Source: Escherichia coli
GTDB taxonomy: Bacteria; Pseudomonadota; Gammaproteobacteria; Enterobacterales; Enterobacteriaceae
Assembly (NCBI RefSeq): GCF_003334385.1
Contig: NZ_QOWN01000006.1
DNA length: 64,000 nucleotides
Direction: 5' to 3' (one strand)
Numbering within the stretch: the first letter of the stretch is position 1; the number at the start of each line of letters is the position of its first letter. Position numbers and translations under genes: made by a program. The notes under the pieces are model-generated. The model saw only the letters and a program-made list of their open reading frames with translations. It was not told the DNA's origin and ran no database searches. Below are positions 18,915 through 41,879 of the stretch, one piece after another.

Positions 18915-20195
18915 TCAATCAATTGCGCTTGTCATCAGTTCTCTTGCCGAATGCAGCCGGATATAAGCAACCCACGCCGCCAGCAACGTGAATGCCCCGG
19001 CAAACAGGAAGCAGGCCGCATAGCCAAAATGTTGAGCAACAACGCCACCGATAACGCCTGCCAGAATGGCGATTGCCGCATCAGTACATTGAAAGAGGGT
19101 GAAGTCGACACCGGCCTGCAAAGGCGATGAAAGCGACATCAGCGTGGCGTAAAGACAGACCAGCGCGCAGGCCAGCGAAATGGACTGGACAATGACCAGA
19201 CACTGGAGAATCTGCAGCAGCAGATGACCCGGCGCCATCATGAGCGTCATCACCACCGCCAGCAGCGCGATCCCCTGGACGCCATAAGCCGTCAACAGCG
19301 CTCTGCCGGGTGAGGTGTATTTCATCAGCAATCCGCCGGCCAGCGTTCCTGCTATGCCCGCTGCAATATTGCCGCCGCTGAACAACGCGCCCAATGCGGA
19401 CATGCTCAACCCATGATCCAACAACAGCGGTGCCAGAAGAGGCAGCACAAACCGCATGCCTGAATTCAGCATCAATACCAGCAGTAAGCCCAGGCGCGCC
19501 TGCTTCCTCCTTAGCGCATAACCTAACGCCGGAACATGCAGGATAGTCGCTGTTCGCGTCGGCTCCGTAATGCGCCACAGCGGGAGTGACAGCGCCATAA
19601 TCAGCACCGCCATCATCAGCATGGCGACAGGCCAGCCGGATGCCGCCGACAGCATCAGGAACACCCCGCCGCCGCACATCATTCCCAGATAGCTGCCGCC
19701 GACCTGCACGCTGTTTCCCCAGCCGTAACCCGTGCGGGTCAGTTGATCGACACAAAAGCCGTCGCTGGCGATATCAATGGTGGAGGCGACCGTGCCTGCC
19801 ACCATAAACAGAACAAATAACGCGACGATTTGCGTATCGGGGAATCCCCCTTCTCGCCTAAACCAGCCAATCGCTGCGGCAATAGTCAGGATCGCCGCTA
19901 GCGCGACCTGACCACGCAGGATTAACATGCGGGAACGGCGTTCCTGGCTACCGGGCGGAAGCCGCCAGCGCTCGATCCACGGCGCCCAAATAAACTTCAG
20001 CGCCCAGGGCAGCATAAACAGGGTTGTCGCACCGGCAAGCGCCAGCGAACCGCCAGCAGCGCGCACCAGCGCGGGTAAGGACTGCATAGACAGCGCCGAT
20101 ACCAGACTCTGCGTCACATAGACGCCGGCAATAGCAAAAATCACCCGCCCGGTCGTCAACGTCAGCGGTTTCACATTCGACTGAACATCACTCAT
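18915..20195 (-). CDS. ybtX: MFS-type inner membrane protein YbtX
   Basis: Start taken at MSDVQSNVKPL (426 aa); polytopic; overlaps ybtQ stop by 8 bp. Confidence 0.8.
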   Translation of the reverse strand: MSDVQSNVKPLTLTTGRVIFAIAGVYVTQSLVSALSMQSLPALVRAAGGSLALAGATTLFMLPWALKFIWAPWIERWRLPPGSQERRSRMLILRGQVALAAILTIAAAIGWFRREGGFPDTQIVALFVLFMVAGTVASTIDIASDGFCVDQLTRTGYGWGNSVQVGGSYLGMMCGGGVFLMLSAASGWPVAMLMMAVLIMALSLPLWRITEPTRTATILHVPALGYALRRKQARLGLLLVLMLNSGMRFVLPLLAPLLLDHGLSMSALGALFSGGNIAAGIAGTLAGGLLMKYTSPGRALLTAYGVQGIALLAVVMTLMMAPGHLLLQILQCLVIVQSISLACALVCLYATLMSLSSPLQAGVDFTLFQCTDAAIAILAGVIGGVVAQHFGYAACFLFAGAFTLLAAWVAYIRLHSARELMTSAID

Positions 20196-21990
20196 GCACC
20201 CACTCTCCAGACGCGGAAACCCCGTCGTCGCGCCACACGCGCGCGGCCATTTGCGCCTGCCACAGCGCCTGATAACGCCCATGATGTGAGAGCAATTGCG
20301 CATGAGTACCCTGCTCAACCACCTGTCCCTCTTCCATCACCAGAATGTTTCCGGCCCCGGCGATGGTGGATAAACGGTGAGCGATGATAATCACCGTCCG
20401 GTTGTAAACCAGGTTATCGATCGCTTTTTGCACCGCCAGCTCGCTTTCAATATCCAGCGCGGCAGTCGGTTCATCGAGAATGACGACTGGCGCGTTTTTC
20501 AATAACGCTCTGGCAATGGAAATCCGCTGGCGCTCGCCGCCCGATAGCTGGCCGCCCATCTCTCCCATTGGCGTCAGCCAGCCTTGCGGAAGACGGGAAA
20601 TAAACTCAAGGCACTGCGCCGCGCGGGCGGCCTCTTCTACCTCCTGCCGCGTCGCCTGTGGGCGCGCGATACGGATATTCGCCAGCAGCGTGTCATCAAA
20701 CAGCCAGACATCCTGGAAAACAACAGAAATCAGGCTATTGAGCTGTTCCGGCGTCAGGCGGCGAATATCGACGCCGCCAATAGAAATCTGCCCTTGCTGC
20801 GGATCGGCATAGCGCATTAACAGTTTGGTGACGGTAGTTTTGCCTGCGCCGGAGGCACCCACCAGCGCGCTCATACTGGCTGCCGGGAACGTCAAAGAAA
20901 CATGATTAAGCGCGTGGCCGTCGCCTTCTTCGTAGCGATAGCTGACGTTGTCAAAGCGGATATCGTAACGTTCCGGCATCTCGCTTTGCTCTGCGACGGG
21001 AAGCGGTGCTATCGCCATAAACTGCTCAATCCGTTGCAGGGCGCTGGCGATCAGTTCCACAACCGAGGTGTAGCTGATAAACATCGCCATCGGTTCTGCG
21101 AAGCGCATAATCATCGCGACGGCGGCAATCAAAAAGGCGAGGTTCAGAGTGCCCGTCACTACCCAGACGATCCCGGATAACACCACCACCTGTAGGCCCA
21201 ACTCCACGACGCTGGCGATCAGCATCGTCGCGCCAGCGCCCTGACGGTGAGTGCGGGTCTGTAAGTTTTCCAGCGCATTGAAATGCGCCAGCAGCGCCCG
21301 GCTTTTATCGGCATCGCTGCCGCAGGTGCGCAATACCATCATCCCCTGAGCAAATTCAACGATATCGCCGCTCAGACGCTGGTGCGCTTCCCCCAGCGTC
21401 TGCATTTGTCGCCGCATCGCCGGGCGGCGCCAGTAATAAAACGGCACCAGCAGAGGGAAGATCAGCAACATCACCAGCCCCAGCCGCCAGTCTATCCACA
21501 ATGTCGCCAGCGACGCCGTCAGCGGCGTGACAATGGTGAGCAGCAAAATATTGGCTATCGCAATAACATAATTGAGGTTTTCATCCACGCTGCCCAGCAG
21601 CAAGGCGTTCATTTCACCCGCCCTGCCGCGCTGGAGCTTCTCCAGCGGCACGCGGCGTAACTGCTCGCCAAGTCGCAGGCGCAACTCATGGGTGGCCTGC
21701 GCCAGATGACCACGGTATTCAAAGCCCAGGCCATACCAGCGTAGCACCAGCGTCACAATTGCGGCGACGCTGAAGGCCATAGCCCAGTTAAGAAGTTGCG
21801 GCGCGTCTCCCCGTAACAGCGCATCAATGATCGGATAAAGACAGGCAAAGGCGATCCCCTGCATGAATGCCGCCAGCAACAGCGCCAGCATACTGCGTCG
21901 CAGCATCCTGGCCTGACTGCCAACGCTGGAGATAAGCAGGCGCCAGATGACGCGCCAGGCCAGGTTATCCGCAGGATTATTGTCTTTCAT
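20188..21990 (-). CDS. ybtQ: ABC transporter permease-ATPase fusion YbtQ
   Basis: Start at MKDNNPADN (600 aa); Walker A GASGAGKTT; signature LSGGERQR. Confidence 0.85.
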   Translation of the reverse strand: MKDNNPADNLAWRVIWRLLISSVGSQARMLRRSMLALLLAAFMQGIAFACLYPIIDALLRGDAPQLLNWAMAFSVAAIVTLVLRWYGLGFEYRGHLAQATHELRLRLGEQLRRVPLEKLQRGRAGEMNALLLGSVDENLNYVIAIANILLLTIVTPLTASLATLWIDWRLGLVMLLIFPLLVPFYYWRRPAMRRQMQTLGEAHQRLSGDIVEFAQGMMVLRTCGSDADKSRALLAHFNALENLQTRTHRQGAGATMLIASVVELGLQVVVLSGIVWVVTGTLNLAFLIAAVAMIMRFAEPMAMFISYTSVVELIASALQRIEQFMAIAPLPVAEQSEMPERYDIRFDNVSYRYEEGDGHALNHVSLTFPAASMSALVGASGAGKTTVTKLLMRYADPQQGQISIGGVDIRRLTPEQLNSLISVVFQDVWLFDDTLLANIRIARPQATRQEVEEAARAAQCLEFISRLPQGWLTPMGEMGGQLSGGERQRISIARALLKNAPVVILDEPTAALDIESELAVQKAIDNLVYNRTVIIIAHRLSTIAGAGNILVMEEGQVVEQGTHAQLLSHHGRYQALWQAQMAARVWRDDGVSASGEWVHE

Positions 21991-40782: not shown

Positions 40783-41879
40783 TGCCGTCCGCCTCCCCAA
40801 AACAACGCGTACTGATTGTGGGCGCCAAATTTGGCGAAATGTACCTGAATGCCTTTATGCAGCCCCCGGAGGGGCTGGAACTGGTCGGCCTGCTGGCGCA
40901 GGGAAGCGCCCGTTCAAGAGAGCTGGCTCATGCGTTTGGCATTCCGCTGTATACCTCGCCGGAACAGATAACCAGGATGCCGGATATCGCCTGTATTGTC
41001 GTGCGTTCGACCGTCGCCGGAGGAACCGGTACGCAGCTTGCCAGACACTTTCTGACGCGCGGCGTACACGTCATTCAGGAGCATCCCCTCCACCCGGATG
41101 ACATCAGTTCCTTACAAACGCTGGCGCAGGAACAGGGCTGCTGCTATTGGGTAAACACGTTTTATCCGCATACGCGCGCGGGACGCACATGGCTTCGCGA
41201 TGCGCAGCAGCTGCGTCGCTGTCTGGCTAAGACGCCGCAGGTGGTCCACGCCACCACCAGCCGACAGTTGCTCTACTCCACTCTGGATTTGTTGTTGCTG
41301 GCTCTGGGCGTTGATGCCGTCGCCGTGGAGTGCGACGTGGTTGGCAGCTTTAGCGATTTTCACTGTCTGAGACTCTTCTGGCCGGAGGGAGAAGCCTGCC
41401 TGCTGCTTCAGCGCTATCTCGATCCTGACGATCCAGATATGCATAGCCTTATCATGCACCGCCTGCTGCTGGGCTGGCCGGAAGGTCATCTTTCGCTGGA
41501 GGCGAGCTACGGCCCCGTCATCTGGTCATCCAGCCTGTTTGTCGCAGACCATCAGGAGAACGCCCACAGCCTCTACCGCAGACCGGAGATCCTGCGCGAT
41601 CTGCCGGGTCTGACGCGCAGCGCGGCGCCCCTGAGCTGGCGCGACTGCTGCGAAACCGTCGGGCCGGAGGGCGTCAGCTGGTTGCTACACCAGTTGCGCA
41701 GCCATCTGGCGGGCGAACATCCACCAGCGGCCTGCCAAAGCGTACATCAGATCGCGTTATCACGTTTATGGCAGCAGATTTTACGTAAGACCGGCAATGC
41801 GGAGATCAGACGCCTGACGCCGCCGCACCACGACCGGTTAGCCGGTTTCTACAACGATGATGATAAGGAGGCGCTGTGA
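40779..41879 (+). CDS. ybtU: Thiazolinyl reductase (Irp3/YbtU)
   Basis: Start at MMPSASPKQRVLIVGAKFG; nucleotide-binding N-terminus; ATGA overlap with the irp1 stop. Confidence 0.85.
   Translation: MMPSASPKQRVLIVGAKFGEMYLNAFMQPPEGLELVGLLAQGSARSRELAHAFGIPLYTSPEQITRMPDIACIVVRSTVAGGTGTQLARHFLTRGVHVIQEHPLHPDDISSLQTLAQEQGCCYWVNTFYPHTRAGRTWLRDAQQLRRCLAKTPQVVHATTSRQLLYSTLDLLLLALGVDAVAVECDVVGSFSDFHCLRLFWPEGEACLLLQRYLDPDDPDMHSLIMHRLLLGWPEGHLSLEASYGPVIWSSSLFVADHQENAHSLYRRPEILRDLPGLTRSAAPLSWRDCCETVGPEGVSWLLHQLRSHLAGEHPPAACQSVHQIALSRLWQQILRKTGNAEIRRLTPPHHDRLAGFYNDDDKEAL

Follow-up and report, generated by a model that had tools for sequence, protein, structure and literature searches.

Conserved stop/start overlaps within the yersiniabactin operons of an Escherichia coli high-pathogenicity island are consistent with coupled translation

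The 64,000-nucleotide stretch of Escherichia coli DNA analysed here (contig NZ_QOWN01000006.1, hereafter the window) carries a yersiniabactin (ybt) gene cluster, recognized by its gene set and order ybtS-X-Q-P, ybtA, irp2, irp1, ybtU, ybtT, ybtE and fyuA (Table 1), in which four pairs of adjacent genes overlap at their stop and start codons. Above-cut-off matches to the NCBIfam salicylate synthase and thiazolinyl imide reductase profiles were obtained in the window, and the island adjoins tRNA-Asn (16237-16309) and an integrase gene. A megablast search identified a 100% identical record, NZ_CP035884.1, in which the region is labelled as the high-pathogenicity island (HPI) of Yersinia, beside tRNA-Asn, and a 6-kb query from the window matched 2,268 of the 5,426 complete genomes of E. 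coli; identity was at least 99% for nearly all of these and 100% over the 6 kb for many. The HPI has been described as four operons, ybtPQXS, ybtA, irp2-irp1-ybtUTE and fyuA, with promoters 5' of ybtP, ybtA, irp2 and fyuA (PMC8725597), and in a consensus scan sites resembling promoters or terminators were not in excess within the ybt operons. Both observations agree with the polycistronic expression proposed in an earlier reading of the DNA made without database searches (the sequence-only reading).

Direct reading of the sequence defined the four overlaps, in each case in agreement with RefSeq. Within ybtPQXS, ybtP and ybtQ share 14 nucleotides (nt) on the minus strand (21977-21990; ybtQ ATG 21990-21988, ybtP TAA 21979-21977) at a junction reading ...GAGGTGGTGGAAAATGAAAGACAATAA..., and ybtQ and ybtX share the 8 nt ATGAGTGA, also on the minus strand (20188-20195; ybtX ATG 20195-20193, ybtQ TGA 20190-20188), within ...CTGGAGAGTGGGTGCATGAGTGATG.... 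Within irp2-irp1-ybtUTE, on the plus strand, irp1 and ybtU share the 4 nt ATGA (40779-40782; junction ...CCGGAGAACACGTTATGATGCCG...) and ybtU and ybtT share the 4 nt GTGA (41876-41879; junction ...ATAAGGAGGCGCTGTGACG...). The overlap lengths given by the sequence-only reading thus proved exact to the base at all four junctions. The RefSeq overlap coordinates are common to more than 2,200 complete E. coli genomes, and the coordinates annotated for ybtQ, ybtX, ybtU and ybtT in the RefSeq Yersinia HPI ybt locus give the same four overlaps, with no difference at any of these junctions. The overlaps are real, ordinary and already present in public annotation, and they fit a textbook mechanism; the only things added here are how widely the megasynthase/reductase junction is conserved and details of the start codons.

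Each of the downstream starts is accompanied by a Shine-Dalgarno (SD)-like motif located inside the upstream gene (Table 1), with anti-SD duplexes of -6.6 to -12.2 kcal/mol and a spacing of 4-8 nt. The ybtQ duplex (-8.9 kcal/mol) ends 5 nt before the ATG, and that of ybtT (-12.2 kcal/mol) is the strongest in the locus. A GGAG-type motif was present at the position of the ybtU SD in 8/8 lineages displayed, and in most loci of the wider survey described below. Relative to a background opening energy of 11.9 +/- 4.0 kcal/mol, the ribosome-binding site (RBS) of ybtQ is predicted to be relatively open (6.4 kcal/mol) and that of ybtT open (8.0 kcal/mol). The ybtX RBS is predicted to lie in a long-range helix (mean unpaired probability 0.18, opening energy 15.5 kcal/mol), a sequestration common to the window and to a lineage of 90% identity (L006), and the ybtU RBS is predicted to be moderately sequestered in the window only. 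RBS sequestration was rejected as a general explanation for the overlaps, a consistent prediction being obtained for ybtX only. At the remaining short junctions, ybtS begins 27 nt past ybtX and has a strong and accessible RBS of its own (-7.8 kcal/mol; opening energy 4.9), and ybtE follows ybtT with a gap of 3 nt, a distance within the range reported to be permissive for reinitiation (PMC10666635).

The frequency of overlaps was compared with the surrounding DNA and with the species as a whole. Overlapping same-strand pairs numbered 4/8 in the island and 3/15 in the rest of the window (Fisher p=0.16), the latter three being vsr/dcm, hprS/hprR and cobS/cobU. Of all unidirectional pairs in E. 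coli K-12, 24% have a distance of -8 to +6 nt, most commonly -4, followed by -1 and -8 (PMC10666635), and the excess in the island over this baseline was not significant (binomial p=0.06 for 4/7 junctions). The number of overlaps in the island is unexceptional for operons; their conservation, as judged by the comparisons between loci that follow, is far beyond chance.

To examine conservation of the irp1/ybtU junction, one genome per species was scanned for the conserved YbtU N-terminal motif, giving 63 loci of which 55 were evaluable. The polyketide synthase (PKS, HMWP1-like) gene overlapped the reductase gene in 54/55 of these loci, drawn from 21 alpha-, beta- and gammaproteobacterial genera, the exception being one Vibrio locus with a distance of +27 nt. 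A -4 candidate was available in 44 loci, with -1, -8 or -14 in the other overlapping ones; by genus, distances of -8 or -14 were observed in Vibrio and Photobacterium and of -1 in Proteus, Providencia and Roseospira. Where the reductase had a single possible start codon (34 loci) the overlap was present in 33. The following junction, between the reductase and thioesterase genes, overlapped in 34/46 loci. Across eight lineages the second codon of ybtU specifies M, M, N, T, K, I, S and I, and its first base is always A, so that the TGA is kept. In Serratia symbiotica (L004 3001-5684, L007 5311-6462) ybtT is absent and ybtE overlaps ybtU by ATGA, and ybtX is represented there by an uncalled tblastn match of 77% identity that is probably a pseudogene. 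The ybtP and ybtQ genes overlapped in 5/5 lineages compared, at 57-90% identity, by 14, 14, 4, 4 and 1 nt (L006, 14 nt; L007 and L008, 4 nt; L009, 1 nt), and the 8-nt ybtQ/ybtX overlap is arranged identically in L006. As no orthologous ybtP/ybtQ pairs beyond the five lineages were found among loci from the genome-wide motif scan, conservation of the ybtP/ybtQ and ybtQ/ybtX overlaps rests on five and two lineages, respectively.

The interpretation favoured here, with a probability of roughly three in four, is that these are ordinary stop/start overlaps within the polycistronic ybtPQXS and irp2-irp1-ybtUTE operons and that termination-reinitiation is the most likely mechanism operating across them. 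Coupled translation is suggested by the geometry of the junctions together with their conservation. Ribosomes ending ybtP, ybtQ, irp1 and ybtU would either reinitiate at the neighbouring start or make it accessible, coupling ybtQ to ybtP, ybtX to ybtQ, ybtU to irp1 and ybtT to ybtU, and ybtE would probably be coupled to ybtT in the same way across the 3-nt gap. For ybtX only, an upstream ribosome may in addition unfold the RNA holding the predicted sequestered RBS. Independent initiation would be expected of ybtS, with its distance of +27 nt and strong open RBS, and of irp1 (+87 nt). In this way YbtQ output would be tied to that of its heterodimer partner YbtP, and YbtU and YbtT output to completion of the 3,163-residue HMWP1.

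Several properties are shared with ATGA/TGATG termination-reinitiation systems described elsewhere (PMC6728339, PMC10666635, reviewed in PMC12548453), in that the ybt operons contain two 4-nt overlaps and one 8-nt overlap and, like the reported coupled pairs, have the SD inside the upstream gene. Among native E. coli pairs with 4-nt overlaps, 4/5 were tightly coupled, an internal SD usually helping (PMC6728339), and coupling requires overlaps or very short gaps, collapsing at a gap of about 20 nt (PMC10666635). Subunits of heteromeric complexes are 4.5-fold enriched among pairs separated by short distances (PMC10666635); YbtP and YbtQ, which together make up a heterodimer (PMC7002159), belong as halves of a heterodimeric ABC transporter to the class reported as enriched among overlapping pairs.

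A number of observations weigh against coupling and should be set beside this evidence. The searchable literature yielded no experimental study of coupling in the ybt operons, and at the ybt junctions, unlike the reported pairs, coupling is a matter of deduction. The RBSs of ybtQ and ybtT are predicted to be accessible and have good SDs, so that independent initiation is possible at both, and in other lineages the ybtU RBS shows no consistent sequestration. The drift of the ybtP/ybtQ overlap between -14, -4 and -1, and of the ybtX/ybtS distance from +27 nt in the window to +3 nt in L006, where the ybtX stop is displaced by 24 nt, indicates that stop-codon position is partly neutral. Of the five E. 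coli overlap pairs that were tested, bioBF was uncoupled and initiates de novo (PMC6728339), and the 14-nt ybtP/ybtQ overlap, again unlike the reported coupled pairs, exceeds the -8 to +10 range taken as predictive (PMC10666635). In the junction survey, the start picker favoured overlapping candidates where several existed, and many of the 55 loci are from closely related Xenorhabdus or Photorhabdus species.

In the main alternative, each downstream gene is initiated independently from its own SD and the positions of the stop codons drift neutrally. The overlaps would then be by-products of compaction without functional coupling, each downstream SD recruiting ribosomes de novo and the upstream stop being simply the first in-frame stop. 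The drift, the bioBF precedent and the open ybtQ and ybtT sites just described are all in line with this explanation, as are the presence of an SD-like motif at every downstream start and an overlap density in the island not significantly above that in the rest of the window. It sits poorly with the near-invariance of the PKS/ybtU overlap, with preservation of an A after the ybtU ATG as the encoded residue varies, with the ATGA re-created or kept after ybtT loss in S. symbiotica and with the predicted sequestration of the ybtX RBS, and is considered unlikely. The near-invariant junction (GGAG, 7-9 nt, ATGA) could also mean that the trans-acting reductase must be made by the ribosome just completing the approximately 350-kDa synthase, either fixing a 1:1 ratio or allowing YbtU to assemble on the nascent assembly line, which would make the overlap a functional requirement and not mere compaction; this stronger proposal is doubtful.

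If translation is coupled by termination-reinitiation, this would help to explain how the YbtPQ importer, YbtU and YbtT stay in step with their partners, and polar effects would be expected from nonsense or insertion mutations in upstream ybt genes. The current understanding of the yersiniabactin system is unchanged by these findings. Their value for annotation lies in the start codons of ybtQ, ybtX, ybtU and ybtT, which the overlaps and comparative data fix.

Longer reading frames do exist for three of these genes, as the sequence-only reading had noted, beginning at GTG 22017 for ybtQ, TTG 20318 for ybtX and TTG 40719 for ybtU, and if real they would entail dual coding of 41, 131 and 64 nt, respectively. 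Upstream of the short starts these frames are uninterrupted in the window, and the ybtX extension is open in L006 as well. The internal starts that had been preferred over them, MKDNNP, MSDVQ and MMPSAS, are backed by RefSeq, PDB constructs, profile boundaries, divergent loci and SD pairing, and the RefSeq/PGAP annotation of NZ_CP035884.1 matches the short starts of ybtQ, ybtX, ybtU and ybtT. For ybtQ, whose first codons are ATG AAA GAC AAT AAT CCT (MKDNNP), an in-frame stop lies 3 codons upstream of the ATG in L006 and 2 codons upstream in L008 (59% identity), so the longer open reading frame (ORF) is impossible in those lineages, and a GTG is present at the homologous position in S. symbiotica. 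The PDB YbtQ chains 6p6i_B and 8vsi_B start with MKDNNP, their alignment to the long ORF beginning at its residue 10, and SD pairing at GTG 22017 amounts to -3.9 kcal/mol.

For ybtX, position 1 of the RhtX/FptX profile aligns to residue 58 of the 467-amino acid (aa) long ORF, in which the short start is residue 42, so that the profile begins 16 residues past the MSDVQ start. Similarly, a YbtX-like protein from Halomonadaceae, encoded in another gene order, has its residue 13 aligned to long-ORF residue 63, just past the short start. TTG 20318 has an SD-like pairing of -7.3 kcal/mol, though this ends just 2 nt before the codon.

For ybtU, the TIGR01761 (thiazolinyl reductase) profile has its position 1 at long-ORF residue 26, the ATG being residue 21, and thus starts 5 residues past the MMPSAS methionine. 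The TTG of the long ORF is absent from a lineage of 84% identity (L003), and the SD duplex for the short start is -6.6 kcal/mol vs -3.3 for TTG 40719. A second ATG (40782-40784) immediately follows the ybtU ATGA (ATGATGCCG, encoding MMPSAS) and would give a 1-nt TGATG overlap, so that overlaps of 4 nt and 1 nt are both possible. The PDB 4gmf construct used the second Met; of the two ATGs, the first alone is kept throughout eight divergent lineages, and the comparative data favour it as the probable start.

The ybtT GTG has an in-frame stop 4 codons upstream, which makes it the most upstream start possible and a longer ORF impossible, and the next ATG (41891) has a duplex of -2.0 kcal/mol without an SD. 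PDB 6ba8_A (YbtT) aligned with the GTG model over 1-267, beginning at its first residue; the N-terminus of the chain reads MMQSAM where the window encodes M-T-Q, presumably because the strain used for the structure has a GTG-ATG variant like that in L003. As NCBIfam yielded no dedicated YbtP, YbtQ or YbtT model, profile boundaries are uninformative for the ybtQ and ybtT starts. The short models underlie the PDB constructs of YbtQ, YbtU and YbtT, which fold and assemble. With family profiles and homologues beginning past the short starts and SD pairing at the long starts weak or badly spaced, comparative evidence excludes the long-ORF models, whose reality would be very improbable.

A preference for internal starts is no general rule, as it is the longer ORF that is supported for ybtP. 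RefSeq/PGAP places the ybtP start at ATG 23689 (570 aa), as does Prodigal in L006 and L007. The 600-aa ORF from ATG 23779 corresponds to the protein of the solved structure PDB 6p6i_A (600 aa, aligned 1-600), and in this respect the RefSeq ybt locus differs from it. Substitutions in the first 30 codons relative to the 90% lineage number 3, 1 and 9 by codon position, a third-position bias, and this stretch, which forms the N-terminal elbow helix, contains a W..I..PV motif kept in five lineages. The 600-aa ORF is probably the better model, and the RefSeq model of ybtP, which has spread widely, probably lacks 30 codons.

A role for the overlaps in programmed frameshifting or read-through to yield fusions such as HMWP1-YbtU or YbtQ-YbtX, as the fusion-like database proteins P0034 and P0055 (580 aa, HMWP1 C-terminus plus YbtU) and P0155 (718 aa, YbtQ plus YbtX) might suggest, can be dismissed as extremely improbable, given that these are rare singletons vs thousands of normal copies, are out of frame at several places in a manner typical of indel errors or pseudogenes and not of clean junctions, and that no slippery-site evidence was seen. 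P0034, P0055, P0155 and P0121 were each rejected as junction fusions, their sequences indicating frameshifted or duplicated assemblies. P0121 is YbtQ with an internal 75-residue duplication, indicating a frameshift or assembly error.

Table 1. Coordinates of yersiniabactin genes and of SD-like motifs at overlapping junctions in the window
Feature	Position	Strand	Remarks
ybtS	17583-18887	-	RefSeq; last gene of ybtPQXS operon
ybtX	18915-20195	-	RefSeq; 426 aa, MSDVQ start
ybtX SD-like GGAGAG	20203-20208	-	Inside ybtQ; anti-SD duplex -6.8 kcal/mol
ybtQ	20188-21990	-	RefSeq; 600 aa, MKDNNP start
ybtQ SD-like GAGGTGGTGG	21994-22004	-	Inside ybtP coding sequence, upstream of ybtQ ATG
ybtP	21977-23689	-	RefSeq model, 570 aa
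ybtP	21977-23779	-	600-aa model, ATG 23779
ybtA	23946-24905	+	RefSeq
irp2	25096-31203	+	RefSeq
irp1 (HMWP1)	31291-40782	+	RefSeq and ORF list; final codons hold ybtU RBS
ybtU SD-like GGAGA	40767-40771	+	Inside irp1, 7-8 nt upstream of ATG
ybtU	40779-41879	+	RefSeq; 366 aa, MMPSAS start
ybtT SD AAGGAGG	41865-41871	+	Inside ybtU, 4 nt upstream of GTG
ybtT	41876-42679	+	RefSeq; 267 aa, GTG start
ybtE	42683-44260	+	RefSeq; 3 nt past ybtT stop
fyuA	44391-46412	+	RefSeq

Elsewhere in the cluster, the 5' end of irp2 (25078-25098, plus strand) has an ORF-list start at GTG 25078 vs the RefSeq ATG at 25096; the SD of the latter (AGGAGG) is far stronger and well spaced (-10.3 vs -3.0 kcal/mol for GTG 25078). 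The 87-nt gap between irp2 and irp1 is the one long intra-operon gap and contains a G+C-rich hairpin, GGAACGCCAT-CGCGAACG-ATGGCGTTCC (31228-31255, plus strand), the stability of which did not differ significantly from that of shuffled sequence (z=-1.8). The HPI integrase beside tRNA-Asn (16474-17389, plus strand) is annotated as frameshifted, and inverse-autotransporter/Ig-like gene remnants occupy 47064-49870 (plus strand) downstream of fyuA.

Other junctions in the core-genome part of the window include a 4-nt overlap of cobS and cobU (62979-62982, minus strand), a 1-nt overlap of hprS and hprR (10613, minus strand), and msrP and msrQ, which abut with 0 nt between them (12943/12944, plus strand). 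The dcm and vsr genes (6523-6542, minus strand) likewise form a same-strand stop/start overlap in an E. coli operon, and translation of vsr is reported to depend on that of dcm; unlike the ybt junctions, the overlap is longer (20 nt) and the pair belongs to the core genome and is unrelated to the island. A full-length match to the Rfam small RNA rseX (96.8 bits; 6245-6334, plus strand) lies antisense inside the RefSeq vsr coding sequence (6072-6542, minus strand). IS1 at 8501-9198 (plus strand) interrupts an HD-domain gene, and an Rfam EFASI RNA match (63814-63984, minus strand) is located within an IS4 remnant at the window end.

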